DNA from: a virus
Virus record (IMG/VR): IMGVR_UViG_3300033692_000041
Direction: 5' to 3' (one strand)
DNA: 16,546 nt
Shown: one piece after another, positions 1 through 16,546 of the stretch
Layout: each line of letters starts with the position of its first letter
Position numbering within the stretch: the stretch's first letter is position 1
Notes under the pieces: model-generated
The model's input: the letters and a program-made list of their open reading frames with translations, nothing else
The model's database searches: none
Told to the model about the DNA's origin: nothing
Position numbers and translations under genes: made by a program

Positions 1-99
1 AATCTGACACATAAAGACTTTAAAAGGTTTATATATGAATATAGAACTTAAAGAATTAAAGGTATTAGGGAATAAATAAAGTGAGTTGGTGAGAGGTTA
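1..99. repeat. Terminal overlap copy 1, identical to 16448-16546
   Basis: Base-by-base comparison shows 1-99 equals 16448-16546 exactly. This implies a circular unit of 16,447 bp or a 99-bp direct terminal repeat. Confidence 0.9.
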
Positions 100-252
100 G
101 CTGATAATATTTAAGTATGATAAATAGGGTATTGAAAAAGGTCGGTTAATAATCGAGTCTAGCCTGTTACGATAGCAATCATTGCCTTGCAACTTAATTT
201 ATAACGGTAAATCGAGGCACGGGTTCAAATTTACTTTTATCCCTTTACTTTT

Positions 253-282
253 TTGAAAAAGTTGGCTGCCAACAAAATAATA
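253..282 (+). promoter_or_regulatory. Candidate promoter with operator-like palindrome upstream of the RNase H-like gene
   Basis: TTGAAA at 253-258 and an A/T-rich -10-like ATAATA/TAATAA around 277-283. The perfect 6-bp inverted repeat GTTGGC-T-GCCAAC (261-273) sits in the spacer. Confidence 0.3.
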
Positions 283-311
283 AAGAGTTTCATGATCAGT
301 GAGGTGATCAG

Positions 312-701
312 ATGAATGTCAAAATAATAGTTTGTGCTTCCAGTAATCATTATTCAGTGCTGCTCATTGCTGGTGATCATCAGAAAAAGTTAAAAGGACC
401 GATTAAGGAAGCTGCAGAATTAGAAAACACACTCAGGGCAGCAATTAAAGCAGTTAAAATGCTTAAGTATCCAGTAGATATAGAGCTGGTAACCAATCAT
501 GAGGCATTTAGCCAGGTGTTTGATTTAGGACGGCCAGAAATGCAAAATAAAGCGTTTGTGCAGGATAATATCGAGCTCTGGCAGGAATTAATCAGGTTAA
601 TTAAGCAGCATAACAGTTTCAATCACAAACTAAAAGACAGTAATCGACAGGATTTGACACTATTTAATGAATTATATCGAGATTGTTTATATCGGAGGTG
701 A
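312..701 (+). CDS. RNase H-fold protein with substituted catalytic residues (predicted inactive)
   Basis: 129-aa ORF with SD GAGGTGAT 3 nt before the ATG. Hand alignment to E. coli RNase HI from memory: VKIIVCASS vs VEIFTDGSC, NTLRAAIKAV vs MELMAAIVAL, ELVTNHEAF vs ILSTDSQYV, IELWQELIRL vs VDLWQRLDAA, LFNELYR vs RCDELAR. Confidence 0.55.
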   Translation: MNVKIIVCASSNHYSVLLIAGDHQKKLKGPIKEAAELENTLRAAIKAVKMLKYPVDIELVTNHEAFSQVFDLGRPEMQNKAFVQDNIELWQELIRLIKQHNSFNHKLKDSNRQDLTLFNELYRDCLYRR

Positions 702-712
702 GGCTCTCAAAG

Positions 713-770
713 GCTCATATTTGCAATTTTAGAGAGGGTTGCACTAAAAGGGTATAAACCCTTGCTGAAA
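713..770 (+). repeat. Intergenic repeat module copy 1 (GCTCATATTTGC ... TAAAAGGGTATAAAC)
   Basis: The 12-mer GCTCATATTTGC (713-724) recurs exactly at 2765-2776. The following roughly 45 bp also align with the copy-2 flank, including TTG..TAARGGGTRTAAA. Confidence 0.6.
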
Positions 771-831
771 CAGATTGAGTTAGCAAATGGTAAAGAATTT
801 AATTGATTTGGGGCAAATTAACGGTTAAGTA

Positions 832-860
832 TTGACGAATTGAATTTTTTTGTGAATAAT
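832..860 (+). promoter_or_regulatory. Sigma-A-type promoter (TTGACG - 17 nt - AATAAT, with TG extended -10)
   Basis: TTGACG at 832-837, a 17-nt spacer ending in TGTG, and AATAAT at 855-860. It would give a roughly 180-nt leader before the small ORF at 1048. Confidence 0.45.
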
Positions 861-973
861 AAGTAGAAGGGTAAAATATTTTTGATTAACACTAACAAAT
901 ACCAGGTAAAAACTTTTATATATAGACGAGAGGTGTTTTGTTTGGCAGCGGGTTGTGATAAAATAACCCCTGT

Positions 974-1007
974 AAAAAGAAAAAAACTGCCTCCACGGGC
1001 AGTTTTA
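974..1007. terminator. Bidirectional-looking intrinsic terminator hairpin
   Basis: Stem ACTGCC (986-991) pairs with GGCAGT (998-1003). It is preceded by the A-run 974-986, which reads TTTTTTTCTTTTT on the - strand, and followed by TTTT on the + strand. The - strand version is the stronger one. Confidence 0.5.
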
Positions 1008-1047
1008 AATACCTGTCATCAGTCCAGATAGAAAGGAGGTGATGACT

Positions 1048-1137
1048 ATGAACATCTACATTATGCTAGATTTGAGACTAAGTCTCAGTCTAACATTGGC
1101 TTTTGGTTTGTTCATTGTGCTGACAATAAATAGATAG
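1048..1137 (+). CDS. 29-aa hydrophobic peptide (type I toxin-like or small membrane peptide)
   Basis: Strong SD AAAGGAGGTGAT with AGGAGG 8 nt before the ATG at 1048. Product is MNIYIMLDLRLSLSLTLAFGLFIVLTINR, one predicted TM stretch with a terminal Arg. An intrinsic terminator follows immediately. The ORF is below the track size cutoff. Confidence 0.45.
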   Translation: MNIYIMLDLRLSLSLTLAFGLFIVLTINR

Positions 1138-1148
1138 TCAGCCAGGTT

Positions 1149-1186
1149 CCCTCAGATAAGCTGGTACCTTGTCTGGGGGTTTTTTT
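1149..1186 (+). terminator. Rho-independent terminator after the small peptide ORF
   Basis: CCCTCAGATAAG (1149-1160) pairs with CTTGTCTGGGGG (1168-1179), giving 12 bp including two G-U pairs. TTTTTTT follows at 1180-1186. Confidence 0.7.
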
Positions 1187-1204
1187 ATGTCTTTTTCTAA
1201 GATA

Positions 1205-1233: not shown

Positions 1234-1314
1234 CTTTTTTTAGCAAAATGCAATCATTTCTGGGCACCTCAGGACCAATGCCTCAGAGAGATGATCCCTG
1301 AACCAATTCCTCTG

Positions 1315-2418
1315 TTAATCCCTCAGTTTTTCAAATTCTTTTTCTGTTAGATTAAAGCTATCAGCTAAATCCTCAACCTCAATTTCTAGCCTGTCAGCTA
1401 CTTCTTCAGCAGTTTTCTCACCTTCAATAAAATATTTTTTCCACCTACTTTTAAAAGACCGATAGTTTGTCGAACAATTAGTGTTTTCGCAGAATTCTCT
1501 TTCTCTTCCCCTGGTGTTTTCTACTGGGAACCAATCCCCACACAACGGGTGCTTGCACCTTTTAAACTTCTTATTTTCTGTTATATCCTCAAAAAATTGC
1601 ATATAGGCAGCAGCCAGCAAGGTTTGGGACTCATTACCTGGCAGCAGATTACTATCATTTGCTATCAAGTGAGGTTTAGTTAAATTCAAATGTTTATTTA
1701 TATTAGCAGAAAATATTTCTTTGGCTCTTTCCAGTGATACTGCATTATCGTTTTTATTTGTGAGTATATTTTTAACAAACCAAATTTTTGTATTATCTAA
1801 ATCAGGCAGCTTATTTTCCTGCAAACCTCCCCAGATTTCAATCAATCCCTGCATTTCCTCTACTGCAAATTTAAACATTTCATAACTTTGAAAAGCATCA
1901 CTTTTAAATCCAATATATGTTTTTTTAGGATAGCATACATCAAAAGAAATAATCTTTATCGGGTGATGATCTGCACCCAGAGGACCATATTTATTGCAGA
2001 ATTCTATAATTTCATTATCATTATCGAGGTTCAATTTATTTATATCAAGATAGATTTTATTTTCAGCAGCATTCCCACCCTCATTGTAAGGATTGTAGCC
2101 CTCATTGCCACTATACCAGTGTTCTTTAATTTTTTTAGGTGAAGCAATAAAGAGACTTTCATCAGTCAGATTATTGTAATCTTTATCTACACTCTCCACA
2201 AAATTATCCATTAATTTTTTTATTTCCTCAGAGACACTTGAAACTTTTTCAGTCTGTTTTATCTCCCAATCTGGTAACTGATCATAAAAATCAACTAAAT
2301 AATTATGATACAGCTGCTTGATCTCCTTAAACTTTAAAATTTTATATGGACCAAAGTTTTTATTATCAATTCTATTAATATCAACATTTGTTCCAGCAAT
2401 TTTTTTAGTGCGAAACAT
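1315..2418 (-). CDS. 367-aa protein with a C-terminal CGNR-type zinc-finger-like motif; putative regulator of the divergent switch
   Basis: Long ORF. I trim the track start (a GTG inside the SD) to the ATG at 2418, since the - strand reads GAGGTG TTTATT ATG TTT CGC. The C-terminus CKHPLCGDWFPVENTRGREREFCENTNCSTNYRSFKSR fits the C-x4-C ... FC-x4-C-x3-Y-R arrangement of zf-CGNR proteins. I do not recognise the N-terminal roughly 280 aa. Confidence 0.8.
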   Translation of the reverse strand: MFRTKKIAGTNVDINRIDNKNFGPYKILKFKEIKQLYHNYLVDFYDQLPDWEIKQTEKVSSVSEEIKKLMDNFVESVDKDYNNLTDESLFIASPKKIKEHWYSGNEGYNPYNEGGNAAENKIYLDINKLNLDNDNEIIEFCNKYGPLGADHHPIKIISFDVCYPKKTYIGFKSDAFQSYEMFKFAVEEMQGLIEIWGGLQENKLPDLDNTKIWFVKNILTNKNDNAVSLERAKEIFSANINKHLNLTKPHLIANDSNLLPGNESQTLLAAAYMQFFEDITENKKFKRCKHPLCGDWFPVENTRGREREFCENTNCSTNYRSFKSRWKKYFIEGEKTAEEVADRLEIEVEDLADSFNLTEKEFEKLRD

Positions 2419-2446
2419 AATAAACACCTCTTTTTTTGCAAGAATG

Positions 2447-2471
2447 ACGGTTTTAATAACTTTAATACCGT
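2447..2471. promoter_or_regulatory. Imperfect 25-bp palindrome (operator candidate) in the divergent control region
   Basis: ACGGTTTTAATAACTTTAATACCGT has identical outer 5-bp arms ACGGT/ACCGT, with 9 of 12 arm positions symmetric. It lies just downstream of the predicted - strand start site. Confidence 0.4.
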
Positions 2472-2479
2472 TATTTTAT

Positions 2480-2508
2480 ATTATAGACTATAAAGTAAGA
2501 AGTTGCAA
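2480..2508 (-). promoter_or_regulatory. Near-consensus promoter for the 367-aa gene (TTGCAA - 17 nt - TATAAT)
   Basis: The - strand reads TTGCAA CTTCTTACTTTATAGTC TATAAT, with -35 at 2503-2508 and -10 at 2480-2485. A weaker + strand -10 TATATT (2477-2482) overlaps it. Confidence 0.55.
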
Positions 2509-2546
2509 TAGCTGGAGGTAAAAAATAAAAAGTGGAGGTGAATTTG

Positions 2547-2747
2547 GTGAATAGAGTAAGAGAATTTAGGAATAAAAAAGGCTTAACTCAGCTTGAATTG
2601 GCAGAGATAACAGAGATTTATCAAAATGACATTAGCCAAATTGAGACGGGTGGGAGAAAAGTTTTCCCAGGTTGGAGGAAAAGATTATCCGAGGCTCTGG
2701 AAGTGGAGGAAGAAGTTCTGTTTCCTGAAGATGAGGGGGAGAAATGA
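2547..2747 (+). CDS. Xre/Cro-like helix-turn-helix transcriptional regulator
   Basis: NRVREFRNKKGLTQLELAEITEIYQNDISQIETGGRKV is a typical HTH_3 signature. GGAGGTG at 2534-2540 favours the GTG at 2547 over the track start at 2532. The gene is divergent from the 367-aa gene. Confidence 0.85.
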   Translation: MNRVREFRNKKGLTQLELAEITEIYQNDISQIETGGRKVFPGWRKRLSEALEVEEEVLFPEDEGEK

Positions 2748-2869: not shown

Positions 2870-3280
2870 ATGTTGGATACTAAAAGCTCCAGTGGTGAAA
2901 GAAAGATAAATGACAGATACCCTACTCTTTATTTTGGAATTGATGTCAGTCAGTTGAGTTTTAGTGAGTTTAGAGCTGTAACCAGAGAGGTCAGGACAAT
3001 TATTGAGGATTCGATTGAGAAGGTCGAGAAAGAAAATTACTTTGCTCCCCGTAAACTGTCATTTTTAAAGTGGATTCAAATCAAATTGACAGGTGATGAT
3101 CAGGAGAGAATGATAAAATCTCATAAGTTAGCAGCTGATAAGTTAGGCAGCTTATTTAAAAGAAGTTTTATTTTGCGAGAAATACTGACAGAAAAGCAAT
3201 TGGATACATTGATCAGCGAAGTGAAAGCCTACTGGATTGAAAAAGGAATTGAAGAAATCAAAAGTACCTATCCAGGTTAA
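2870..3280 (+). CDS. Hypothetical protein (136 aa)
   Basis: ORF with AAAGGAG upstream at 2852-2858. No motif recognised. Confidence 0.65.
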   Translation: MLDTKSSSGERKINDRYPTLYFGIDVSQLSFSEFRAVTREVRTIIEDSIEKVEKENYFAPRKLSFLKWIQIKLTGDDQERMIKSHKLAADKLGSLFKRSFILREILTEKQLDTLISEVKAYWIEKGIEEIKSTYPG

Positions 3281-3319: not shown

Positions 3320-3448
3320 ATGCAGCACAAAAAAGAAAAAAGCCAGTCTCTAAGACCTAGAGCTGGCAAGCAACAAATGATTTATCCTATTAAATCAATT
3401 ATACCAGATAGTTACCGAAATAACAAGGTTCAGGGTGATTTTAAATGA
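3320..3448 (+). CDS. Small basic hypothetical protein (42 aa)
   Basis: The ATG at 3320 follows GGGAGA. Product is MQHKKEKSQSLRPRAGKQQMIYPIKSIIPDSYRNNKVQGDFK. The stop overlaps the next start as ATGA at 3445-3448, which suggests coupling. The ORF is below the track cutoff. Confidence 0.35.
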   Translation: MQHKKEKSQSLRPRAGKQQMIYPIKSIIPDSYRNNKVQGDFK

Positions 3449-4365
3449 GTGATAATAAAAAATATTATTATCTAAAATTAAAAGAAAATTTCTTTGATAG
3501 TGAAGAAATAAAAGTCTTAGAAAGCATGGAGAATGGTTATAAATACAGTAATATTTTATTGAAAATGTACTTAAAATCTTTAAAAAGAGAAGGGTTGTTG
3601 GTTTTCAAGGACACAATTCCTTATGATGTGAAAATGATTGCTACAATAACTGATCACAATGTCAATGATGTTAAGCAGGCTTTAGTATTATTTCAGCAAA
3701 TGGGCCTTATTGAGATTTTGTCGAATGGTGCGATTTACATGATGGATATACAAAATTTCATTGGTAAATCGTCAACTGAAGCTGATAGGGTTAGAGCTTA
3801 TAGAAATCAAGTTCAGGAGAAAAAAGAAGAATTATTAGAGTCTGAAGGTCCTGGAAATATCAGCGATCTTGAAGGTGATGTTACAAATGTTGTTACAAAT
3901 GTACAACAAAAGAACGACATTTCTACACCAGAGTTAGAGATAGAGTTAGAGAGAGAGAAAGAAAAACCGTCGGAAAAATCCGACAGTCAGCCTGGGGATG
4001 AGTTTTCGATAAGCAAAAAGGAAAATGGTCGTTATGATTATCCAAAGGCTTTTGAGAAAATATATAATCTTTATCCCAGTCAAAGAGGAAGTAAGAAGGC
4101 TCACTGGAGAAAATGGGCTGCAACTAGAAGAAAGGGGATACCTCAGGAAGATTTAGAGCTGGCTGCTAAAAACTATTCCTCTGAATGCAAAAAAAATGGA
4201 ACTGAAGAGCAGTATATAAAGCAATTTAAAACTTTTTTCGGAAGAGATGAACACTGGAGAGAATATATAGGACCAGAAACTGACTTTGATCAGGAAGCAG
4301 AAAAGCAAAAAAGGTTGGAAGATATGAGGAAAAAGCAGGAAGAGTGGGTAGAAAACTATGGATAA
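3445..4365 (+). CDS. Phage replisome organizer (N-terminal replisome-organizer domain)
   Basis: The N-terminus KKYYYLKLKENFFDSEEIKVLESMENGYKYSNILLKMYLKSL matches the characteristic Phage_rep_org_N pattern. The gene sits directly upstream of, and overlaps, a DnaB-type helicase gene. Confidence 0.8.
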   Translation: MSDNKKYYYLKLKENFFDSEEIKVLESMENGYKYSNILLKMYLKSLKREGLLVFKDTIPYDVKMIATITDHNVNDVKQALVLFQQMGLIEILSNGAIYMMDIQNFIGKSSTEADRVRAYRNQVQEKKEELLESEGPGNISDLEGDVTNVVTNVQQKNDISTPELEIELEREKEKPSEKSDSQPGDEFSISKKENGRYDYPKAFEKIYNLYPSQRGSKKAHWRKWAATRRKGIPQEDLELAAKNYSSECKKNGTEEQYIKQFKTFFGRDEHWREYIGPETDFDQEAEKQKRLEDMRKKQEEWVENYG

Positions 4366-5740
4366 ACAAAACATCTTTCAAAATTTAGCATTAGAAAAAG
4401 GGTTTTTATCCTCAATACTATCTAATCCCGAGTTATTTGGTGAGCATGTGGAGGAAACCAACGCTGAATTGTTTAGTAATGAGCTGCATAAAGCTGTTTA
4501 TAAAAAAATGGAAGACGATTATTTAGATAAAGGTAAAATTGCCAAAACCGAGGTCATGCTGTTTGCTTCTAAAGAGTTTGGCCAGGGTCAAATAGAAAAA
4601 ATTATTGAGAGTGAATACCTGGCTCCAATGGAGCTGGAGGATATAATTCATAATTTAAAAGAATGCAGGGAGAGAAGGAGAATTAAAGACTCTCTCAATA
4701 AAGCCTATAATTACTTGACTGACAATGAATTAAAACAGGATCAGTTCAAGTCTAAGATACAAGATGAAGTTTTTACTGCCACGAGTGAAAATTTAGAAGA
4801 AAAATTAATTCATGATGTTGAATCAGTAGCTTATGAATCATTCGAAAGATTCCAGGAGCGTCAAGAAGGCAAAGAAACAGAAAAAATAAGGACAGGAATT
4901 TATTCTTTAGATGCTATGACTGGAGGGGGATTAAGTAGAAAACACCTGAGCATTTTGGCTGGACGGCCTTCAATGGGTAAGACTGCAATGAGTTTAAGAT
5001 TATTGGGCTCTATTTTAAAAACTTCTGATACTCCTAGCTTGATGATCAGTTTAGAAATGGATCGAGTTAAACTATTGGATAGAATCCTGATTCAGGAGGC
5101 CAAAGTAAAAGCAAATGATTATTATAAAACAAAAAACAATCAAGAAAATAAAGTTGTTCAAAAGCAGAGAAATGCGATTGAGACAGCCAGAAATTGGCTG
5201 CATGATAAACCTTTAAAGATTACTGATAGAAGAGGACTGACAGTCAATGATATTAAATCAATTGCTAGAAAAGCTGACAATATTTACAATGGTGAATTGA
5301 AATTTATTGTTATTGACTATTTAACTGAAATAAATGTCAGCTCAGTAGGTGGAAGATTCGATAAAGGAACTGCTGAAGCTGTAAGGGAATTAAGAAGTTT
5401 GGCAGCTGAATTGGATGTTCATATAATGCTGCTGCACCAAATTAATAGAGATTTTAAAGGGAGGGGGAATAAACGGCCTCAACTGAGTGATCTTCGTGAT
5501 AGTGGGGAGATAGAAGAGAAGGCTGATAGCGTTTTCTTTGTGCATAGGCCTCAATATTATGAGTGTAAAGAAAAGGGGATTGATGAGCCCAAAGTTCAGG
5601 ATGATGCAGAATTGTTGGTAGCAAAGCAAAGAGAAGGTGCAACTGGGGCGATAAATATGATTTGGTACCCAGAGATAGTGTATTTTCAAGATTTTCATGA
5701 TCAGAAAGTCAGAGGACCCGTGAATTATTTAAAGCAATAA
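4358..5740 (+). CDS. dnaB: Replicative DNA helicase, DnaB family
   Basis: Walker A GRPSMGKTAMSL, Walker B-like FIVIDYLTEI, HQINRD, and LSDLRDSGEIEEKADSVFFVHRP. An 8-nt overlap with the upstream gene suggests coupling. Confidence 0.9.
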   Translation: MDKQNIFQNLALEKGFLSSILSNPELFGEHVEETNAELFSNELHKAVYKKMEDDYLDKGKIAKTEVMLFASKEFGQGQIEKIIESEYLAPMELEDIIHNLKECRERRRIKDSLNKAYNYLTDNELKQDQFKSKIQDEVFTATSENLEEKLIHDVESVAYESFERFQERQEGKETEKIRTGIYSLDAMTGGGLSRKHLSILAGRPSMGKTAMSLRLLGSILKTSDTPSLMISLEMDRVKLLDRILIQEAKVKANDYYKTKNNQENKVVQKQRNAIETARNWLHDKPLKITDRRGLTVNDIKSIARKADNIYNGELKFIVIDYLTEINVSSVGGRFDKGTAEAVRELRSLAAELDVHIMLLHQINRDFKGRGNKRPQLSDLRDSGEIEEKADSVFFVHRPQYYECKEKGIDEPKVQDDAELLVAKQREGATGAINMIWYPEIVYFQDFHDQKVRGPVNYLKQ

Positions 5741-5761: not shown

Positions 5762-6052
5762 ATGAGGGGATTCGCTAAATTACTTAAAGATATTGATAAT
5801 GTCAAACGGCAAAATAATGCCAGTAATCACGAAATGTCAGAGTTGTTGTCTAAAATCAGCGAATATTATAAAGATCGAGCTGAACCAAATCAGAGAAAGA
5901 GGCTGATCAGTGAGACAAAAAGCAAAATTGAAACCGCATTGACCTTTGTTGAAGCACTGGAAGCAGAAAGAGGCAGCGTTTTCACTCATGAAGCGAGGGA
6001 AGTTATCACTGATATTGGTGATTATTTAGACGAGATAGAAAAATACAGTTAG
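5762..6052 (+). CDS. Hypothetical protein (96 aa, helical or charged)
   Basis: ORF with SD GAGGTGAT 3 nt before the ATG. No motif recognised. Confidence 0.65.
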   Translation: MRGFAKLLKDIDNVKRQNNASNHEMSELLSKISEYYKDRAEPNQRKRLISETKSKIETALTFVEALEAERGSVFTHEAREVITDIGDYLDEIEKYS

Positions 6053-6062: not shown

Positions 6063-6605
6063 ATGTTAGCAACTAAATTAGCTTATCGCTACACTAAAGG
6101 CGAAATGAAAGAACTTTTAAAGAGTTTGACGATTCTCATTGACACCAGGGAGCAGGCCAACACTCATATTCAGGGATATTTCGATAGTAAATGCATAGAT
6201 CATAAAAACAAAAAGCTTGATTTTGGTGATTACAGTTTTATGCTGCCAGCTAATGAAAAGCTGGGAATCATGCGAGATATTTATTTTATGGACCAGATAG
6301 CAATTGAGAGGAAAGCCAGCCTGACTGAGTTAAGCAATAATTTTACTCACGATAGAACTCAGTTTGAGAACGAGTTAATCAGGTCGAATGGGAGCAAATT
6401 AATTCTACTGGTAGAGAATGCAGCAGGGTATGAGGATATTATTGAGCATAATTACAGGACCCAGTATAAGCCAAAAAGTTTTCTGGCCACGCTGCATTCA
6501 TTTAAACACCGTTATGACCTTGATACTGTGTTCATAAAGCCCGAAATAGCAGGAGATTACATTTATCGAAGTTTTTATTATTGGCTTAGAGAATACCTAA
6601 AATAA
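6063..6605 (+). CDS. ERCC4-type (XPF/Mus81-like) nuclease domain protein
   Basis: ILIDTREQ, GDYSF, and IAIERKASLTELSNNF (the ERK motif), followed by a LILLVEN strand. SD is AGGAGG. Confidence 0.7.
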   Translation: MLATKLAYRYTKGEMKELLKSLTILIDTREQANTHIQGYFDSKCIDHKNKKLDFGDYSFMLPANEKLGIMRDIYFMDQIAIERKASLTELSNNFTHDRTQFENELIRSNGSKLILLVENAAGYEDIIEHNYRTQYKPKSFLATLHSFKHRYDLDTVFIKPEIAGDYIYRSFYYWLREYLK

Positions 6606-6710
6606 GACCCTAAGTTCAACATAGGGCGTAGGGTATTAACCACCCCCTTTAAAGGTCAGATAGAATTTCAAACCGACCTATTAGTGCCTAGTTTTAATTG
6701 AGGGACTTAA

Positions 6711-6824
6711 ATGGTATTTCAGACAGGTAAAATTCGTACAGCTGATGGTTGGAACGATATTCGTACAGAGATAGGGAAAAATTGCCGAGAGTTTGGAGCG
6801 ACGAAATTCGTCGGACCAAAATAA
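6711..6824 (+). CDS. Possible 37-aa ORF inside the long spacer
   Basis: GAGGGA lies 5 nt before the ATG at 6711. Product is MVFQTGKIRTADGWNDIRTEIGKNCREFGATKFVGPK. The ORF contains the ATTCGTACAG direct repeat and the 15-bp palindrome, so the region may be regulatory or RNA instead. Confidence 0.25.
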   Translation: MVFQTGKIRTADGWNDIRTEIGKNCREFGATKFVGPK

Positions 6825-7030
6825 ATAATAGTCGGAGTTTCCCGAGGCCTTAAAAAAGAGAGAGTTTGCTGACACGGTTATGCGTGCGAGACTAAAACTT
6901 AACAAAACTTCACATTGAGAGACTTACAAAAGCTTACATTGGATACCTGAAAAAACCTGAGATTGAATAAAAATTATAAAGAGTTTGGTAACACGACAAC
7001 ATGCGTGGGAATGTTTACATATGTTGACAT

Positions 7031-9903: not shown

Positions 9904-9926
9904 GAGGGGAGAAATCCCCTCTTTTT
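9904..9926 (+). terminator. Rho-independent terminator after the tape-measure-like gene
   Basis: GAGGGGA (9904-9910), GAAA loop, TCCCCTC (9915-9921), then TTTTT. Confidence 0.8.
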
Positions 9927-9970: not shown

Positions 9971-10444
9971 ATGCAGGAGGAACTGACAAATCATGCAGAT
10001 GTGGCTGACCATTTAAAATGCTATTTTAGTGGTGAGTTGGAAAAATCAATTAGACGGCTTAAGAGGCTGGTTGAAAGGGAATTCCCTGAGGACTATTATT
10101 GCACGGTAAACGCTGTTAATCTGACACCTGGGAGGTCAAGTAATAGCACTGGTCATGCTGATTTTACGGCTTCAAGGGCAATTCATTTGGCTGATATTAG
10201 ATTAACCAGGAAAAGAATTTATAAAAAGCATGTTGAACTGAGAGAAGGTATTAAAAAACAGCTGGAAAAGTATGATCAGGAAGTCATTGACCTATTAAAA
10301 GCCGATTTAGGACTTATTCAGGCCACTAAAACAGAGATAGTGAGTGCAGCAAGTTTTGGTTACAGCAAATCAAGAGTGATATTAAGTCAGGTTTTAAAAG
10401 AATTAAGCACTGTAATTAGGAGGATTTTTGATGAATGCGATTGA
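9971..10444 (+). CDS. ArpU/RinA-like putative late transcriptional activator
   Basis: 157-aa ORF. Its layout resembles RinA/ArpU proteins: an N-terminal helix, a central NLTPGRSSNSTGHADFTASRA segment, and a C-terminal HTH-like TEIVSAASFGYSKSRVILSQVLKEL. Assignment is from remembered family features only. Confidence 0.45.
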   Translation: MQEELTNHADVADHLKCYFSGELEKSIRRLKRLVEREFPEDYYCTVNAVNLTPGRSSNSTGHADFTASRAIHLADIRLTRKRIYKKHVELREGIKKQLEKYDQEVIDLLKADLGLIQATKTEIVSAASFGYSKSRVILSQVLKELSTVIRRIFDECD

Positions 10445-10709
10445 AATCTTAGAAAATTACACAGATTTAAAGACAAAAAAAGAGCTTTTAGAATGCCAGG
10501 GGAAAGATAATTCAGAGCTGGAGGCTCAAATTAAATCTTATAACATAATTAAAAATTCATTATCTGAGAGAAAACAGAAAGTTTTGGAGCTGTATTTTGA
10601 GAAAGAGCACGAATATTATCGAATAGCAAGTGAAATTGGTTATAGTGTCAGCACTGTAAAAAGGGATATTAACGCAATCAAGTCAGAATTCAAGAAATAT
10701 TTGGACTGA
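10431..10709 (+). CDS. Sigma-70 region-4-like / RinA C-terminal-like HTH protein
   Basis: LSERKQKVLELYFEKEHEYYRIASEIGYSVSTVKRDINAIKSEF resembles a sigma region 4 HTH. AGGAGG lies 7 nt before the ATG at 10431. The gene overlaps the previous gene by 14 nt. Confidence 0.6.
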   Translation: MNAIEILENYTDLKTKKELLECQGKDNSELEAQIKSYNIIKNSLSERKQKVLELYFEKEHEYYRIASEIGYSVSTVKRDINAIKSEFKKYLD

Positions 10710-10879
10710 GAGAGGTCAGAGAAATAAAAAGTATGTAGATTTACCCATCTTAGAAAAACTTTTGCCTTATAGAGCCTCTGTAATAGCAGAGAATGACAGG
10801 TATTAAAGCATTTTAAGCATAGGGTGTTATATTGCCCTTTAAAATAAATATGGTCATAATAATAACTACCCTCTTGCTG

Positions 10880-10975: not shown

Positions 10976-11425
10976 ATGGAGGAATTAACTATCAAGGCAG
11001 CTGCTGAATACTATGGAAAAAGTGAGTCCTGGATAAGAAAAAGAATACTTTCAGGCGAATTGGAGGCAGAAAAAAGACCTTTTCAGTATGGAGAAAGATG
11101 GATCACAACAGAAAAAGCACTGGACGATCTAGCAGAGAGACTGAATGAGCAGGCAAAAATGCAAAAAGACTCAGTGAATATCAGAGAAGTTTCAAAGCCA
11201 ATAGGAAAAGAGCAATTTATCAATGAACTTATTGAGGCCACTGAGTCGAAAAATAAAGAAATGATAGATGATGCACTTAATAAAGTAAGTGAGCAGTTTA
11301 AGCAGCAAAACAAACAGCTGCAGCAACAAAACGAGTTGATCAATAAATTATATGAGAAATTGGACCGAGTGGAGAAAAAGCAGGATAAGAGCCTATTCGA
11401 CAAAATAAAACATTTTTTTAAGTGA
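10976..11425 (+). CDS. MerR/excisionase-type HTH protein with a coiled-coil tail
   Basis: LTIKAAAEYYGKSESWIRKRILSGELEAEK is HTH_17-like. The C-terminal half is Gln/Lys/Glu-rich with a heptad-like pattern. SD is AAGGAGG. The function (regulator, small-terminase-like or centromere binder) is unresolved. Confidence 0.7.
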   Translation: MEELTIKAAAEYYGKSESWIRKRILSGELEAEKRPFQYGERWITTEKALDDLAERLNEQAKMQKDSVNIREVSKPIGKEQFINELIEATESKNKEMIDDALNKVSEQFKQQNKQLQQQNELINKLYEKLDRVEKKQDKSLFDKIKHFFK

Positions 11426-11966: not shown

Positions 11967-12134
11967 ATGGAAGTTTTTTCAGCCGAGGAAGCAGCCGAAA
12001 TTCTCAAAGTCAGTAAGAGAACTGTTTATAATGAAATAAAAAGAGGGAATTTAAAAGCGAAAAAAGTCGGCAATAGATACAGAATCCTTAAATCAGAGAT
12101 TGAAAATTATATGAGAGATACTGAAAATAATTAA
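11967..12134 (+). CDS. Excisionase-family (HTH_17) DNA-binding protein, 55 aa
   Basis: MEVFSAEEAAEILKVSKRTVYNEIKRGNLKAKKVGNRYRILKSEIENYM is the classic excisionase/AlpA-type HTH pattern. SD is GGAGGTG. The ORF is below the track cutoff. Confidence 0.75.
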   Translation: MEVFSAEEAAEILKVSKRTVYNEIKRGNLKAKKVGNRYRILKSEIENYMRDTENN

Positions 12135-12537: not shown

Positions 12538-12972
12538 ATGAGCAGAAAAATCGGTCGAACTAAAGAAAACGAATTAATAAAAGTTTATTCTGCAGCTGAA
12601 AAATATGTTGTTGATATTGATGAGGTAACTATCGGCCAGTTTGATACACCAGGAGAAGCCGAGGAAGTGGCAAAAGTCGAAATGCTAAGGAGCTACGGCC
12701 TTGATTATGAACAGGCCAGAGAAATTGTCGGCTCAAATATAATTATCAGCTATAACTTTCTGAAAGACTGGAAAGAAAAGACTGATCAGAAAGTTGAGAT
12801 AGTCCAAGAGGGCAACAAGTGGGTAACTAAAATAAACGGTGCTCCCAGAGGTGAATCCGATACCAAAGAAGATGCTGAAAGAACTGCTGATTTTATTCTT
12901 GTATCAAAACAGCACCCAAAATGGACTGTGCAGCAGTGTTGGGATTATGTAGATCAGGAAAGAGGGAGCTGA
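12538..12972 (+). CDS. Hypothetical protein (144 aa) with two AP2-like segments
   Basis: SD is AAGGAGG. KYVVDIDEVTIGQFDTPGEAEEVAKV and KWVTKINGAPRGESDTKEDAERTADF both resemble the strand-G-x-F-x-T-x-E-E-A helix pattern of AP2-type DNA-binding domains. This is a weak call made by eye. Confidence 0.7.
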   Translation: MSRKIGRTKENELIKVYSAAEKYVVDIDEVTIGQFDTPGEAEEVAKVEMLRSYGLDYEQAREIVGSNIIISYNFLKDWKEKTDQKVEIVQEGNKWVTKINGAPRGESDTKEDAERTADFILVSKQHPKWTVQQCWDYVDQERGS

Positions 12973-12986
12973 AAGGAGGTGAGAAT

Positions 12987-13316
12987 TTGCTGAAACAAAC
13001 TTATTATTTACAGCTTTTAGTAACAGCTGTTGAAAATGTAGTTGATGCCTATGATATTGTCGAGGAGCCAGACTTTAATAGTGATATACAGCGAGAAATT
13101 CAAAAAATCGCAATGAAAACTGGTGAATCAGTCTTATTTGAGACAGAAATTAATGCTGAACTAATGAGCCTGAATTACAAGCTGGGTCATTTAAACAGAG
13201 TTGAGAGTATAATTAATGATATGAAAGAGGAAATTGAAGGGAAAAGGACCGAACTCATTGATGAGCTGAATCTTGACATTGAAAAGGAGGTGAGAAATGC
13301 TAAGAATAAAAAGTAG
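12987..13316 (+). CDS. Acidic hypothetical protein (109 aa)
   Basis: AGGAGGTG lies 5-6 nt before the TTG at 12987. The track extension back to 12921 overlaps the previous gene and lacks an SD. Confidence 0.65.
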   Translation: MLKQTYYLQLLVTAVENVVDAYDIVEEPDFNSDIQREIQKIAMKTGESVLFETEINAELMSLNYKLGHLNRVESIINDMKEEIEGKRTELIDELNLDIEKEVRNAKNKK

Positions 13317-13458
13317 AATTCATGACAGAAAAACTGGTGAGATAATTAGTGAGGAAATTACAGACGAAGTTCCAGACATCACTTTAGAAGAACTCAATCG
13401 GCCACTGGCTGAAATAATCTATAACAGGATCAAGGAAAAGAGAAAAAATAAAAATTAA
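13297..13458 (+). CDS. Small hypothetical protein (53 aa)
   Basis: AAAGGAGGTG lies before the ATG at 13297. The gene overlaps the previous gene by 20 nt. Product is MLRIKSRIHDRKTGEIISEEITDEVPDITLEELNRPLAEIIYNRIKEKRKNKN. Confidence 0.5.
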   Translation: MLRIKSRIHDRKTGEIISEEITDEVPDITLEELNRPLAEIIYNRIKEKRKNKN

Positions 13459-13473
13459 AGGTGGGATTTTAAG

Positions 13474-13641
13474 TTGGAGATTATTAAAACTGAATTTGAA
13501 GATGTCGAAGCATTTGTTTATACCAGTGATTACAATAATAAATTTTTAACAGTCAGTAATGATCTGGATAAATCAAGGGTAGAAGAAATTAAGGAAGAGG
13601 CAAAAGATAAAGATTATCACATATGGACAAAAAAAGACTAA
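13474..13641 (+). CDS. Small acidic hypothetical protein (55 aa)
   Basis: AAAGGTGGGA lies 7 nt before the TTG at 13474. Product is (M)EIIKTEFEDVEAFVYTSDYNNKFLTVSNDLDKSRVEEIKEEAKDKDYHIWTKKD. Confidence 0.45.
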   Translation: MEIIKTEFEDVEAFVYTSDYNNKFLTVSNDLDKSRVEEIKEEAKDKDYHIWTKKD

Positions 13642-13683
13642 ATATGACATAAAAAGACATTAAACTAAAAGGAGAGATTCAAA

Positions 13684-13854
13684 ATGCTATTAATTCAATT
13701 CGCTGATCTGGAAGGAATGCAGGCTTATTATACTAATTTAGGGCAGGAAAGATTGACATTAGACAATAGTTTAACACCCGTGGAAGCACTGGCATTAGTC
13801 CGTAAAATAGAAAAAGACAGACCAACTCATAGTCAGCCTGTCTGCTGTGCTTAA
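13684..13854 (+). CDS. Small hypothetical protein (56 aa)
   Basis: AAAGGAGAG lies before the ATG at 13684. Product is MLLIQFADLEGMQAYYTNLGQERLTLDNSLTPVEALALVRKIEKDRPTHSQPVCCA. Confidence 0.5.
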   Translation: MLLIQFADLEGMQAYYTNLGQERLTLDNSLTPVEALALVRKIEKDRPTHSQPVCCA

Positions 13855-13948
13855 TACTGCAATTGTGATAAATTCACAACTCTTGGCCGAGTTTTGTGCA
13901 GTAAAAGCGACGATTTAAAACATCTTTTAAATATTATATCACGAATTC

Positions 13949-13982
13949 AGCTCCAGTGTAAAAGCTGGGGCTTTTTGTTTTG
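13949..13982 (+). terminator. Rho-independent terminator ending the small-protein operon
   Basis: AGCTCCAG (13949-13956) pairs with CTGGGGCT (13965-13972), with one G-U pair. TTTTTGTTTTG follows. Confidence 0.65.
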
Positions 13983-13997
13983 CTGCAAAAAAAGTAT

Positions 13998-14053
13998 TTG
14001 ATGTAATTTTATATTTATAGTATCATCAGGTTAATATTTGACATTCAGGTTAA
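13998..14053 (+). promoter_or_regulatory. Promoter TTGATG - 17 nt - TATCAT followed by two TCAGGTTAA repeats
   Basis: TTGATG at 13998-14003 and TATCAT at 14021-14026. The exact 9-mer TCAGGTTAA occurs at 14026-14034 and 14045-14053, in the region from +1 to about +30. Confidence 0.45.
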
Positions 14054-14092
14054 AACCTCCGACATTACAACTATCTTAAGGAGGTGAACCCT

Positions 14093-14353
14093 TTGAATAT
14101 TAAACAAATAAAAAACTTTTTACGCTGCAGGAAAGAAAAACTTCGAAGAAATAAGCAAAATTTTAAAGATGCAGTTGATCTATTTGAAATCAATATCGCT
14201 ATTTTAGAAATAGAGAAATTATTATATTATATGGACCACGGAATTAAACCAGAGATTGCCGAAGATGCCAGGGAGAAAGAGATTATAGGCCAGTTTATTA
14301 AGAGAGATGAAAAGTCAATTGCTAAGATTGAGCAGAAAAATGATAGCAGGTAA
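14093..14353 (+). CDS. Hypothetical protein (86 aa), monocistronic unit
   Basis: AAGGAGG lies 8 nt before the TTG at 14093. The track GTG at 14084 is inside the SD. The gene has its own promoter-like site and terminator. Confidence 0.65.
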   Translation: MNIKQIKNFLRCRKEKLRRNKQNFKDAVDLFEINIAILEIEKLLYYMDHGIKPEIAEDAREKEIIGQFIKRDEKSIAKIEQKNDSR

Positions 14354-14365
14354 ATAAAAAAAACA

Positions 14366-14400: not shown

Positions 14401-14525
14401 ATTGCATTAATTATGTGAATATTATATACTTATCAGCAGAAAGTAAAAAAATTACATATAAAAAGACGAAAGACAGCTCCATCTCTCTACCCTTCCACAA
14501 GTTGAGATAAAAGCTGCCTCTTTCA

Positions 14526-14659
14526 CTTCTAACATTCCACCACCAAGCCGATTGTTAGAAGCATAAAAAATATAAATTTGTTAGCTAATGTTTTTCTTAG
14601 CAACATTCTGTATTCTTATATTATCACAACAAGTGATAGATGTTCAATGTTTTTGAACA
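14526..14659 (+). other. Cluster of four hairpins upstream of the prim-pol gene
   Basis: Four hairpins: CTTCTAACA/TGTTAGAAG (14526-14561), TGTT(A)GCTAA/TTAGCAACA (14579-14605), ATCAC/GTGAT (14623-14637), and TGTTCAA/TTGAACA (14641-14659). Confidence 0.5.
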
Positions 14660-14756
14660 AATTTCACTAAAAAGTTTACAGAAAGTGCACTCAAAGTTAC
14701 AAAATGTGCGATTGAATCAACAAATTTATTGAAAAGGTGAATACTAATAAATAATC

Positions 14757-14794
14757 AGGCTTGGGAGGGGTCAAAACTCTTTCAAGCCTTTTTT
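14757..14794 (+). terminator. Terminator or attenuator about 75 nt upstream of the prim-pol start
   Basis: AGGCTTG (14757-14763) pairs with CAAGCCT (14783-14789), then TTTTT. Confidence 0.55.
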
Positions 14795-14812
14795 AAATTT
14801 AGACAAAAAAAG

Positions 14813-14835
14813 ACTCTCAGTAAAGGCCTGAGAGT
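14813..14835 (+). promoter_or_regulatory. Leader hairpin just upstream of the prim-pol SD
   Basis: ACTCTCAG (14813-14820) pairs with CTGAGAGT (14828-14835) around a 7-nt loop. The SD AAAGGAGA follows at about 14850. Confidence 0.45.
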
Positions 14836-14868
14836 TAATCCCCTAAAAGAAAGGAGATTCAATACAGT

Positions 14869-16149
14869 ATGTTTATTATATCAGACAAAAAGAAGAGTAT
14901 CAATGAACATAAAAAAATAGCAGCTTATCAAATGTCAGCAGCGGGTTTTAATCTTTTACCACTAAAAGAAGCTGACAAAGTGCCAGAGTTTAGTTTACTT
15001 CTAGGAAATAGCACAAAGCCGTATTTAGAAAATAAAGCCAGTGCTAACATAGTAAAAAGCTGGTTTGACAGTATGCCAAAAATTAATTTTGGAGTTTTTG
15101 CTGGAACAAAAGTTAATGATCATTATGTTTTAATTATAATCGACTTAGACAAAAGGCCAGATTTTGGGTTGCCAATTACACCAATTGTTAAAACTAGCAG
15201 AGGTTATCACTTATATTTTAAGTGCAGAGCTGACAAGCTACCAGTTCCACACAGGACGGCCAGAGGCGAGATTAAAACTGCTGGCTATGTTGTAGCACCT
15301 CCAAGCCTACACCCTTCAGGAATTAACTATCAGTGGGCTGAATATTTAAGTTTTAAAGATGTGCCACTTGCTGATTTTAGCAATAGGAGAGAACAAATTA
15401 TAAACTTTTTAGACCCAAATTTTACTCCTTCTGAATCCTTTAATAAGATAGCCAATAAAAAAGACTACACTAGAATTAATATTAATACTAGTGTAGTACC
15501 CTCAGAACTAAAAAAAGAGGACTTAGAAATTAAGGTAAAAAAGGGCATTAATAAAAAGTTGTTGATCAGGTTAAGCAAAGATGAAAAAGTTTGTCTGGAA
15601 GTAATGAGAAACTTGTTTGATGTGAAGGTTAAGAGAATCGGGCAGGCCTTTAAATGTCCTTTACATAGTGAAAAAAAGCCGTCTGCTGCACTTTATCAGA
15701 CTGACGACGGTGTCATTGGGTTCAAAGACTTCCACAGAGCAGGCAGTTTTTACACATTGCCAGAGGTTTATTATCAAGCCAGGACTGGGAAACAGCGGGA
15801 TTTAAAAGGAGCGACAAGTTTAATTTGGTGGATCAGAATGTTAAAAGATTCAGGAATAATTGAACTGCCAAAGATTATGCCACCAAAAGAAATTAATCAG
15901 CTGCCAGAGAAGCAGAAAGAGCTTTTAAGCAGCTTTATCGAATTACTGGAAGTTAGACAAGCATATAACACTGAACAGGACTCAGCACCATTTAGCCACA
16001 GGTTTGCAGCAGATTGGAGCGGCCTCAAATATGATACTGTTAGATATTCAAAGACAGCTTTAATCAAAAAAGGAGTTATTAAAAAAGTTGAAGCAGGCGA
16101 CAAAGAAAAAAGAAAAGCAGGAAAGTTTTCTTTAAAAAATAAACAGTAA
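14869..16149 (+). CDS. Prim-pol (bifunctional DNA primase/polymerase N-terminal domain) replication protein
   Basis: LIIIDLDK (DxD), TSRGYHLYF (sGyH motif), and GYVVAPPSLHPSGINYQW are hallmark prim-pol motifs. The C-terminal half contains FKCPLHSEKKPSAALY, which resembles the first half of a DnaG CHC2 zinc finger (CPFHxEKTPSF) without the second Cys pair. Confidence 0.85.
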   Translation: MFIISDKKKSINEHKKIAAYQMSAAGFNLLPLKEADKVPEFSLLLGNSTKPYLENKASANIVKSWFDSMPKINFGVFAGTKVNDHYVLIIIDLDKRPDFGLPITPIVKTSRGYHLYFKCRADKLPVPHRTARGEIKTAGYVVAPPSLHPSGINYQWAEYLSFKDVPLADFSNRREQIINFLDPNFTPSESFNKIANKKDYTRININTSVVPSELKKEDLEIKVKKGINKKLLIRLSKDEKVCLEVMRNLFDVKVKRIGQAFKCPLHSEKKPSAALYQTDDGVIGFKDFHRAGSFYTLPEVYYQARTGKQRDLKGATSLIWWIRMLKDSGIIELPKIMPPKEINQLPEKQKELLSSFIELLEVRQAYNTEQDSAPFSHRFAADWSGLKYDTVRYSKTALIKKGVIKKVEAGDKEKRKAGKFSLKNKQ

Positions 16150-16215
16150 ATTGCAGGGCGTTAATTGCCTTTCTGACGGGGAAAACTTAATTATTAAACG
16201 AGCTTTTTCAATACA

Positions 16216-16237
16216 ATATATAAAAGGTTTATATATG
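16216..16237. repeat. Perfect 9-bp inverted repeat and first copy of a 17-mer
   Basis: ATATATAAA-AGG-TTTATATAT spans 16216-16236. TAAAAGGTTTATATATG (16221-16237) recurs exactly at 16468-16484, which is 21-37 at the window start. Confidence 0.8.
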
Positions 16238-16326
16238 GGCTTTCTCTTTTAATGACTGTTATTAGTTAGAAATATTAAGTAAATTAGCAGAGAAAAAAGA
16301 CGATCCAACACTTATATTTTTAAAGT

Positions 16327-16460
16327 TAGATAGAAAAAATTAGGCCTGCCCTGACGGGTAGGTCTTTAGTTATAAGTGCATATTTGACACATGTAGATAG
16401 AAAAATTTAAGACTGCTATGACGGGGCTCCCCTGGGCTATAAGCGTAAATCTGACACATA
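16327..16460. repeat. Two tandem 67-bp imperfect repeats (iteron-like), putative origin
   Basis: 16327-16393 and 16394-16460 match at 48 of 67 positions in my ungapped hand alignment. The shared blocks are TAGATAGAAAAA, TGACGGG, CTATAAG/TTATAAG and TGACACAT. A related CTGACGGGG occurs at 16183-16191. Confidence 0.75.
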
Positions 16461-16546
16461 AAGACTTTAAAAGGTTTATATATGAATATAGAACTTAAAG
16501 AATTAAAGGTATTAGGGAATAAATAAAGTGAGTTGGTGAGAGGTTA
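16448..16546. repeat. Terminal overlap copy 2, identical to 1-99
   Basis: See the feature at 1-99. Confidence 0.9.

Follow-up and report, generated by a model that had tools for sequence, protein, structure and literature searches.

A circular element of Halanaerobium with a tape measure gene as a candidate plasmid-borne satellite of a temperate myophage

What kind of mobile element keeps the gene for a phage tape measure protein (TMP) on a circle of about 16.4 kb that has its own replication genes and no recognizable genes for a capsid, packaging, lysis, or integration? This question was raised by IMG/VR virus record IMGVR_UViG_3300033692_000041, a stretch of 16,546 nucleotides (nt) that was analyzed over its whole length and is called the window here. 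An initial annotation of the window had described a phage-derived replicon and suggested that it was an episomal satellite that depends on a helper or a plasmid domesticated from a siphovirus. We put the probability at about one in two that the element is an integrase-less, self-replicating circular plasmid of Halanaerobium and a satellite (a "hitcher") of a temperate, contractile-tailed phage of ~46.6 kb. Somewhat more tentatively, we propose that it stands for an undescribed class of mobile element, namely an integrase-less plasmid that parasitizes a temperate myophage and gives only a tail core (a chaperone and a TMP), with private termini and a converted TMP body.

The two ends of the window carried the following feature, which was the longest prefix that was also a suffix and which gave a unit of 16,447 bp.

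1..99, no strand: assembly overlap, exactly identical to 16448-16546

Copies of the element in other assemblies were recovered by exact-protein look-ups, and closure was found in three of these assemblies. ENA contig k141_29563 (ERZ27245864; 16,588 bp, terminal repeat of 141 bp) was 100% identical to the window and rotated by 196 bp. JGI contig Ga0377188_00199 (3300036318; 16,498 bp, repeat of 127 bp) had its break within the TMP gene, and NCBI contig MIJU01000122.1 (17,701 bp, terminal repeat of 55 bp) was a close variant of the window unit. The overlap lengths (99, 141, 127, and 55 bp) would fit typical assembler k-mers. Because four assemblies closed with different overlaps and break points, the unit was complete, as a circle or a concatemer, and was not part of a larger genome; the closed unit of ~16.4 kb in the initial annotation was therefore correct. 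Six shorter contigs from other runs were 100% identical to the window along their entire length, and copies with 100% identity were present in at least six samples. In the protein look-ups and searches, no element protein was located on a contig longer than 17.8 kb, except for TMP homologues in real phages. As the unit assembled as a circle and no integrase was found, the element is probably episomal in cells. When the whole unit was compared by megablast with PLSDB plasmids and GenBank phages, no match was obtained, and a search of the published literature for the accession numbers of the element yielded nothing.

The proteins of the window were compared with the Pfam, PHROGs, NCBIfam, and PADLOC profile libraries. 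No match to a capsid, portal, terminase, tube, sheath, holin, endolysin, integrase, ParA/B, or relaxase protein was found in these four libraries. The hidden Markov model libraries also contained no match to conjugation or mobilization genes, and PADLOC identified no defense system in the window. Thus, the absence of capsid, packaging, lysis, integration, and partition genes noted in the initial annotation was upheld. One unassigned open reading frame (ORF), which encodes 370 amino acids (aa), was long enough for a capsid or portal protein; the other unassigned ORFs were below 160 aa. We considered the 370-aa protein as a hidden capsid or portal, and its AlphaFold2 (AF2) model was mostly helical and had no significant match among PDB folds. 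This is weak negative evidence because the model was of low confidence (pLDDT 61).

The genes that tied the element to a phage tail were two neighbors on the plus strand.

7031..7348, plus strand: tail assembly chaperone (TAC) homologue of 105 aa, 24 nt upstream of the TMP gene and in the same frame
7373..9892, plus strand: tape measure protein of 839 aa (phrog_1535, E 2e-32; no Pfam match)

Relatives of the TMP were sought among 5.8 billion proteins, and their genomic contexts were compared. The element TMP showed full-length homology (58-84% aa identity over residues 3-839) to the TMPs of Halanaerobium myophages (loci L012-L034 and L072), and those with 58-74% identity were found in one phage type. 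The homologous phage genes sit between chaperone genes and distal-tail/baseplate genes, and the full-length homology indicated that the tape measure-like gene of the initial annotation encodes a true TMP. The chaperone homologues of three element variants matched the phage ORF directly upstream of the phage TMP gene (tblastn E 3e-5 to 3e-4), and the element and phage chaperone families aligned in hhalign with a probability of 95.7% (E 9e-9).

The related phage carries portal, MuF, major capsid, and tail terminator genes. It also has genes for the sheath (E217_gp31_N), the tube, and the TMP, a pair of overlapping chaperone ORFs that encode 163 and 75 aa, and genes for a distal-tail protein, a sheath initiator, baseplate J, and a GH108 lysin. 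The sheath, tube, baseplate J, and sheath initiator genes indicate that this phage is contractile-tailed (a myovirus), so the siphovirus origin suggested for the element did not hold. The phage is also temperate, and its lysogeny genes include those for a serine recombinase, an ImmA-like protease with an XRE repressor, a Cro-like protein, and an ORF6N antirepressor. An IMG/VR contig of the phage (48,392 bp) overlapped itself over 1,829 bp at 89% identity, which gave a unit of ~46.6 kb, and a second contig of 46,769 bp was close to this size.

Phage and element were found together. Phage contig k141_2896 came from ERZ27245864, a sample that also held a copy of the element (loci L001 and L013), and JGI 3300027365 held both as well (L004 and L080). 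A search for a co-occurring phage had been advised in the initial annotation, and a phage with a matching TMP was indeed present in the same samples, but it was a myovirus rather than the expected siphophage. A scan of GTDB genomes located the phage as a prophage (L072) of the isolate Halanaerobium saccharolyticum MA284_T2, on a contig of 138 kb. The structural proteins of this prophage were 93-100% identical to those of the phage, and its 845-aa TMP was 84% identical to the element TMP. The NCBI copy of the element was binned in the metagenome-assembled genome (MAG) Halanaerobium sp. MDAL1.

A diversity-generating retroelement (bAvd, reverse transcriptase, and a ~115-nt repeat pair) adjoins the tail-fiber genes of the phage (L012:19154-21260; L072:19600-21680; L027:13000-15100). 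Given this location, the receptor-binding protein of the phage is probably hypervariable.

We compared the element proteins with ~42 of the ~46.6 kb of the phage, namely the structural region together with 10 kb upstream of the large terminase gene (TerL) and another 10 kb beyond the lysin gene. Within the ~42 kb compared, the protein homologues common to element and phage were the chaperone, the TMP, and the product of one small ORF.

13297..13458, plus strand: 53-aa ORF, homologue of a phage early-region ORF (tblastn to L085:15972-16130, E 4e-22)

This 53-aa protein was 75% identical to the 64-aa product of the phage early ORF directly after the antirepressor gene. Since only three proteins were shared with the ~42 kb compared, the element is not simply a deleted copy of the phage. 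Simple derivation of the element from the phage by deletion was ruled out, as replication, regulation, and all else were unrelated over these ~42 kb.

The TMP genes also carried the traces of exchange between the two replicons. Most phage copies were of one TMP type, type A, and were 91-98% identical among themselves. The TMP of phage L019 had an element-type center (83-100% aa identity) and phage-type ends, and the TMP of element L005 had a type-A center (86-100% aa identity) and element-type ends. Element variant L018 and the H. saccharolyticum prophage L072 shared ~1.65 kb at 100% nt identity within the TMP gene, and in the flanks of this tract the identity dropped to 75% (5' end) and 47-88% (3' end). 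Judged from its sequence, the tract is a very recent gene conversion, an event that requires both replicons in one cell. The ends of the protein followed a different pattern. In all element lineages, the last ~50 residues of the TMP were the element's own (...SQQQRSVKKVDKIEIIVQDSGDSKQTAIDVRKEIEKYFDGEATA...), whereas the phage TMPs had another version (...KSSNSKSEKKVVIENLNLEGSNNTVQDAQKIIKIIEQYFDGEATA...). The element-specific C terminus included SQQQRSVKKVDKIEIIVQDSGDSKQTAIDVR, which was unique relative to the phage type, and the motif (K/Q)YFDGEATA at the extreme C terminus was the sole part common to the element and phage ends. The first ~40 residues were likewise element specific or phage specific.

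Within one phage "species" (L012, L019, and L072; flanking genes 93-100% identical), the TMP ranged from 776 to 845 aa, with identities down to ~65-70%. It was the most variable structural gene of the candidate helper phage.

The element is one of a family. We found at least six diverged lineages (the window/MIJU type, L005/L008, L017, L018/L092, L090, and L091), which were collinear and 15.8-17.8 kb in size. The RNase H-like, 370-aa, helix-turn-helix (HTH), 136-aa, 96-aa, ERCC4, chaperone, TMP, 157-aa, sigma-like, and 149-aa HTH_17 genes and several small ORFs formed a core that was present in all of them. Four alternative helicase-loader/helicase cassettes and two alternative replication (Rep) proteins were distributed among the lineages. 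The cassettes encode a replisome organizer with DnaB, a 141-aa protein with a 586-aa Toprim-helicase, a Lin1244_N protein with a 514-aa Toprim-helicase, or a 291-aa protein with DnaB, and the Rep protein is either a Prim-Pol protein or a 533-aa winged-helix protein. The options were located as follows.

L018:10-2208, L090:2233-4483, L091:6424-9000, and L017:7218-8819: cassette options, swapped wholesale in otherwise collinear elements

The chaperone and TMP genes were always retained despite these swaps. Between lineages, the ratio of nonsynonymous to synonymous substitutions (dN/dS) was 0.09 for the TMP gene, 0.17 for the chaperone gene, and 0.05-0.19 for the other core genes, and such low values indicated that these are working genes and not relics.

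MIJU01000122.1 had an additional 278-aa ORF (L006:242-1078) with a GIY-YIG nuclease and a partial tyrosine-recombinase domain. This ORF was absent from the other variants and lies outside the core. Its presence may reflect a homing-type insertion, or it could serve in dimer resolution.

The remaining genes of the window were as follows. Two of them, the RNase HI-like ORF (312-701) and the Prim-Pol Rep gene (14869-16149), had not been listed in the initial annotation, and neither had the chaperone homologue (7031-7348).

312..701, plus strand: RNase HI-like protein of 129 aa (NCBIfam NF001236 at E 9e-8, below the curated cut-off; phrog_531 RNase H at E 5e-4)
1315..2427, minus strand: 370-aa ORFan with a CGNR-type zinc-finger-like C terminus (PF11706 at E 0.004), divergent from the HTH gene
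2532..2747, plus strand: HTH_XRE protein in the Cro-like position (PF12844 at E 2e-7; phrog_8 and phrog_3)
2870..3280, plus strand: conserved 136-aa protein with no family match in Pfam, PHROGs, NCBIfam, or PADLOC, 76-100% aa identity among variants
3445..4365, plus strand: replisome organizer/DnaD-like helicase loader (PF09681 at E 8e-33; phrog_5968 at E 7e-52)
4358..5740, plus strand: DnaB-type replicative helicase (PF03796 at E 2e-64; phrog_19 at E 9e-73)
5762..6052, plus strand: conserved 96-aa protein with no family match in Pfam or PHROGs, 66-100% identity among variants
6063..6605, plus strand: ERCC4-type nuclease (PF02732 at E 1.5e-12; phrog_3490 at E 3e-59)
9971..10444, plus strand: all-helical 157-aa protein (AF2 pLDDT 74.5), the C-terminal ~60 aa weakly sigma region 4-like
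10428..10709, plus strand: sigma-70 region-4/extracytoplasmic function (ECF)-like regulator of 93 aa (PF04545 at E 3e-6; TIGR02937 at E 2e-7)
10976..11425, plus strand: HTH_17/DUF5053 protein of 149 aa with a coiled-coil tail (PF16476 at E 8e-6; PF12728 at E 2e-5; phrog_57 small terminase at E 3e-4)
11967..12134, plus strand: HTH_17 (excisionase/MerR-type) DNA-binding protein of 55 aa (PF12728 at E 2e-16)
12538..13316, plus strand: two ORFs of 144 and 131 aa with no family match in Pfam, PHROGs, or PADLOC
13474..14353, plus strand: small ORFs of 55, 56, and 89 aa, conserved among variants
14869..16149, plus strand: Prim-Pol replication protein of 426 aa (PF09250 at E 1.4e-13)

The profile searches thus confirmed the phage-type replication and regulation genes, the ERCC4 gene, and the tape measure gene that the initial annotation had listed. 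The Prim-Pol Rep had distant matches to the Reps of small archaeal plasmids and to phage primase/polymerases, and it was exchanged for the 533-aa winged-helix protein in L017, L018, L090, and L091. Within its gene, between the N-terminal domain and the C-terminal half, lay a perfect palindrome of 17 + 17 nt (ACTACACTAGAATTAAT/ATTAATACTAGTGTAGT; 15464-15497), which may be an origin or a regulatory site. The replisome organizer gene contained two internal copies of GTTACAAATG (3880-3901), and other cassettes took its place in variants L018, L090, and L091. The RNase HI-like protein was present in all variants at 81-100% aa identity, and the dN/dS of the ERCC4 nuclease gene was 0.05.

The initial annotation had proposed a divergent switch of the Cro/CI style. 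An XRE HTH protein was indeed found in the Cro position, but the gene in the CI position encodes the 370-aa ORFan, which had a weak CGNR zinc finger match and no HTH domain. One homologue of this ORFan carried PF11706 in its precomputed annotation. The family comprised five clusters among the 5.8 billion proteins, all on contigs of at most 17.8 kb, and a scan of a genome collection found no relative. The dN/dS of the gene was 0.14-0.17, and its product is a candidate master regulator or repressor.

Three further proteins are putative regulators or DNA binders. The 93-aa sigma-70 region-4 protein, which had a weak DUF722 label in its precomputed annotation, is a candidate late-gene activator. 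The 149-aa HTH_17 protein might be an excisionase-like or a small-terminase-like DNA binder, an assignment that is uncertain. The 157-aa protein belonged to a small family (48 representatives without Pfam annotation), and Foldseek comparisons of its model with sigma region 4 were non-significant (E > 1, local TM 0.58-0.71). We also considered this protein, which is encoded downstream of the TMP, as a distal-tail or hub analogue, and the all-helical model ruled this out. The 55-aa HTH_17 protein varied among the variants and was missing from L018, L090, and L091.

According to our gene calls, coding density was 75.3%, and the 24.7% of non-coding DNA agreed with the estimate of about a quarter in the initial annotation. 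The description of this DNA as full of repeats did not fit, since repeats were few and short and lay chiefly downstream of the Prim-Pol gene (two repeat pairs). Terminator-like hairpins were enriched in the window (19, compared to 9.2 +/- 3.4 in shuffles), and Rfam (E <= 0.1) and tRNA scans of the window yielded no matches. The non-coding features and signals were the following.

16150..16447, continuing at 1-311 (609-bp gap), no strand: non-coding region downstream of the Rep gene, with repeats
1048..1137, plus strand: 29-aa hydrophobic ORF (MNIYIMLDLRLSLSLTLAFGLFIVLTINR); its ribosome-binding site is a perfect AGGAGG, and a terminator of its own follows at 1149-1179
2428..2531, no strand: AT-rich divergent control region of 104 bp (25% GC) with promoter-like sites at 2453-2482 (plus) and 2508-2480 (minus)
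6606..7030, no strand: 425-bp non-coding spacer ahead of the tail genes with no ORF and no Rfam match; at 39% GC, the non-coding stretch richest in GC
9904..9921, plus strand: predicted terminator-like hairpin after the TMP gene
10725..10767, plus strand: ~43-nt motif AAAAAGTATGTAGATTTACCCA-N4-AGAAAAACTTTT, common to one phage variant (blastn-short E 3e-5)

The gap after the Rep gene contained two copies of a 32-nt direct repeat (16327-16358 and 16394-16425), and each copy included a GC-rich hairpin that ended in GACGGG. The 17-nt sequence TAAAAGGTTTATATATG also occurred twice in the gap (16222/22). From its position, this gap is a candidate origin, or its repeats may be iterons. Opposite the 29-aa ORF lay a convergent promoter-like site (1233-1205, minus strand) and a minus-strand terminator (1006-983). 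The ORF was kept in all five of the variants examined, including L017, in which the region was only 77% identical at the nt level, and the locus is a candidate type I toxin/antisense RNA stability locus.

Two of the signals overlapped with phage sequence. In the spacer before the tail genes, positions 6842-6858 (CCGAGGCCTTAAAAAAG) were a 17-nt exact match to the inside of the phage small terminase gene (TerS), extended to ~31/41 nt, which provides a weak lead for a packaging signal. We considered a TerS pseudogene upstream of the chaperone gene, and tblastn found nothing past the 17-nt match. The ~43-nt motif was present in all five element variants that covered the region (L005, L017, L018, MIJU, and the window type). 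It also occurred at L027:15095-15137, a module junction upstream of a holin-like ORF where L027 ceases to match the other phages. Mimicry of the attP site of the helper serine recombinase was rejected, as no significant shared DNA was found near the phage int gene.

How does the element compare to known satellites and plasmids? Like a satellite, it was without a capsid, a packaging motor, most of a tail, and lysis genes, and it carried a module of its own for replication and regulation (Prim-Pol, replisome organizer, DnaB, and XRE switch). In the comparison with PICI/SaPI elements, it had no integrase, no small terminase match above threshold, and no capsid-related match, and in that with cfPICIs, it had no capsid, portal, or terminase genes. 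P4 replicates autonomously with a primase-type Rep, can persist as a plasmid, has no structural or lysis genes, and is about one-third the size of its helper. It also has a transactivator of helper late genes, an integrase, the capsid-size gene sid, psu, and the same cos site as P2, and it has no TMP. The element had no PHROG or Pfam match to an integrase, the alpha primase-helicase, sid/psu, delta, or cos, and its Prim-Pol Rep is of a different type from the P4 primase. PLEs integrate via a large serine recombinase, whereas the window had no recombinase and the unit assembled as a circle. Lacking an integrase, capsid-remodeling genes, and a small terminase, the element falls outside the PLE, PICI, cfPICI, and P4-like families, which is in line with the earlier statement that it fits no integrase-bearing satellite family.

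The closest parallel for the tail genes was provided by the PLEs. In chimeric tails, the TAC, TMP, and baseplate hub protein of PLE take the place of their counterparts from the myophage ICP1, and PLE transduction depends on the TMP (10.1101/2025.01.29.635557). Like the element, PLE is satellite sized (~16-18 kb), has no capsid genes, and encodes its own TAC and TMP, which are related to those of a contractile-tailed helper; unlike the element, it encodes a baseplate hub protein. The PLE TMP is ~20% identical to the helper TMP, whereas the element TMP was 58-84% identical to its phage relatives, with tracts of 100% nt identity. The two also belong to different phyla, the candidate helper of the element is temperate, and the likeness is not based on sequence homology. 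By analogy, the element would be most like a PLE in tail piracy and most like plasmid-state P4 in maintenance.

Other parallels were partial. In Pseudomonas sp. ANT_H14, the 16.8-kb satellite phiAH14b is packaged by headful, approximately as trimers, in the capsids of the 55-kb helper phiAH14a (PMC4936722). It resembles the element in having no structural, terminase, or lysis genes, its own primase, and a homologue of a helper tail-assembly protein, and it differs in having a tyrosine integrase, a prophage state, no TMP, and Gram-negative hosts. The EPIPs of Mycolicibacterium aichiense are 11-kb satellites with circular assemblies that encode a TMP, which was called unusual for satellites (PMC12822802). 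Unlike the element, they carry genes for a small terminase, head-tail connectors, a scaffold, a major capsid protein, and a serine integrase. A 2025 review expected plasmid satellites to exist, noted that only one plasmid had been shown to be a phage satellite, and suggested that many may hide among "non-mobilizable" plasmids (PMC12282955). According to that review, this plasmid is a satellite of an inovirus. It is like the element in having no integrase and in a phage-dependent, particle-borne transfer, and it differs in that its helper is filamentous and tail genes are not involved. Phage-plasmids are circular episomes with phage-type replication and regulation genes, as is the element; however, the element is not a phage-plasmid because it has only a chaperone and a TMP and not a full set of virion and lysis genes. 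Compared to a classical plasmid, it has a replication initiator (the Prim-Pol Rep) and candidate origin repeats, and it has no partition or relaxase gene and only the candidate type I toxin locus.

The satellite reading suggests the following life cycle. The element would be kept as an episome by the Prim-Pol Rep, the helicase loader and DnaB, the RNase H-like protein, and the ERCC4 nuclease, and the hydrophobic-peptide locus may add post-segregational stability. The divergent switch, in which the 370-aa zinc-finger-like protein would oppose the XRE HTH protein, may silence the element until the helper is active. The sigma-region-4-like proteins may then drive the late genes of the element or of the helper. 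The helper would supply the capsid, terminase, sheath, tube, baseplate, and lysis functions. By analogy with PLE and ICP1, the element chaperone and TMP would enter tails built with the helper sheath, tube, and baseplate. Gene conversion would keep the TMP body matched to the helper parts, and the element-specific TMP termini and private chaperone might let the element assemble tails by a route of its own or withstand a factor directed against the helper TMP. Finally, the helper terminase could take up concatemers of the element, and three units (49.3 kb) would correspond to 106% of the phage unit.

The episomal satellite with a helper, one of the two readings offered in the initial annotation, gains real support from a candidate helper that co-occurs with the element, is a prophage of a cultured Halanaerobium, and recombined with it very recently in the TMP gene; packaging of the element by this helper is a step that we infer. 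Several points weigh against the satellite reading. We recognized no convincing small terminase gene or pac/cos site in the element, and the small terminase-like PHROG matches of the 93-aa and 149-aa HTH proteins were weak and not significant. The 17-nt TerS match was not significant alone and was missing from variants L005 and L018. Trimers of the 17.1-17.8 kb variants would be 110-115% of the phage length, and because these larger variants exceed it, the size argument for headful packaging of trimers does not go beyond consistency. No capsid-size or helper-interference gene was recognized in the element, and its chaperone is without the frameshift extension that is present in the phage pair. 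Co-occurrence of phage and element was seen in two samples, and the JGI metagenome scans gave 0 and then 3 loci, too small a number for co-occurrence statistics. MA284_T2 showed no element in a scan with two short peptide patterns only, and the host assignment comes from MAG binning and the prophage host.

Several of these points would be expected if the element were instead an ordinary non-mobilizable, anti-phage plasmid that is not packaged, an explanation that we consider unlikely. Its TMP and chaperone would be dominant-negative decoys: the TMP body would co-assemble with helper parts, the altered termini would fail to dock, and tail assembly would be poisoned, to the benefit of the host population. 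A TMP body kept identical to that of the prophage by conversion, with both termini element specific in all lineages, would suit such a decoy just as it suits a satellite, and the decoy would also suit the missing frameshift extension and the failure to identify a packaging gene or signal. The candidate toxin-antitoxin locus also suits a plasmid lifestyle, and interference with tail assembly is an established defense strategy (PMC11364771; PMC10884400; Rta of PLE11). However, no PADLOC defense model matched, and the C-terminal motif (K/Q)YFDGEATA in both the element and phage TMPs suggests that the docking function was retained. Phage-like regulators and an early ORF in common with the phage are hard to explain in a pure defense plasmid. 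Moreover, satellites often combine interference with piracy, so the decoy explanation overlaps with the satellite reading and the two can coexist.

It is distinctly less probable that the element is a cryptic remnant, that is, a plasmid-prophage in decay that is devoid of its former structural genes, persists only as a selfish replicon, and keeps the TMP as a functionless leftover. All of its recognizable genes are of phage type and about a quarter of its DNA is non-coding, as might be expected of such a relic, but purifying selection was evident for the TMP, the chaperone, and every other core gene tested (dN/dS 0.05-0.19). The same gene order is found in at least six diverged lineages, which have always kept the chaperone and TMP genes while their replication cassettes were replaced, the tract of 100% identity links the element to a live prophage, and only three genes are shared with ~42 kb of the related phage. 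An autonomous small virus with unrecognizably novel capsid or membrane proteins is very improbable. The element does have several conserved ORFans (136, 96, 157, 144, 131, and 370 aa), and IMG/VR lists two variants as viral contigs. Yet a single unassigned ORF exceeded 160 aa, and its helical model with a zinc-finger-like tail did not match any capsid or portal fold; the model of the 157-aa protein consisted of helices only, no ATPase or terminase was found, and the TMP and chaperone are parts of a contractile-tail system for which ~20 further proteins are needed. The chance that the unit is an assembly artifact or a piece of a larger phage genome, the outcome that the initial annotation had named as its possible refutation, is close to nil. 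An end overlap of a typical assembler k-mer length might arise in that way, but four assemblers/samples yielded the same closed unit with different k and break points, seven further contigs were 100% identical over their length, and element proteins were absent from longer contigs, phage TMP homologues aside. The independent closures thus exclude a fragment of a larger phage.

Almost all catalogued phage satellites are integrated islands, and TMPs in satellites were first reported in 2025 (in PLEs and EPIPs). If the satellite reading is true, the element family would unite a plasmid satellite and a TMP-bearing satellite in a new phylum, and the cultured lysogen H. saccharolyticum MA284_T2 makes this hypothesis testable. 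The data mark the TMP gene as a hot spot of recombination between the phage and another replicon, with conserved lineage-specific ends, and this exchange amounts to a natural experiment on the regions of a tape measure that determine its choice of partner. The TMP would then be a contested interface among plasmid, prophage, and host in deep-subsurface Halanaerobium. Halanaerobium is dominant in hydraulically fractured shale, and the element may therefore affect phage control of an industrially relevant organism.

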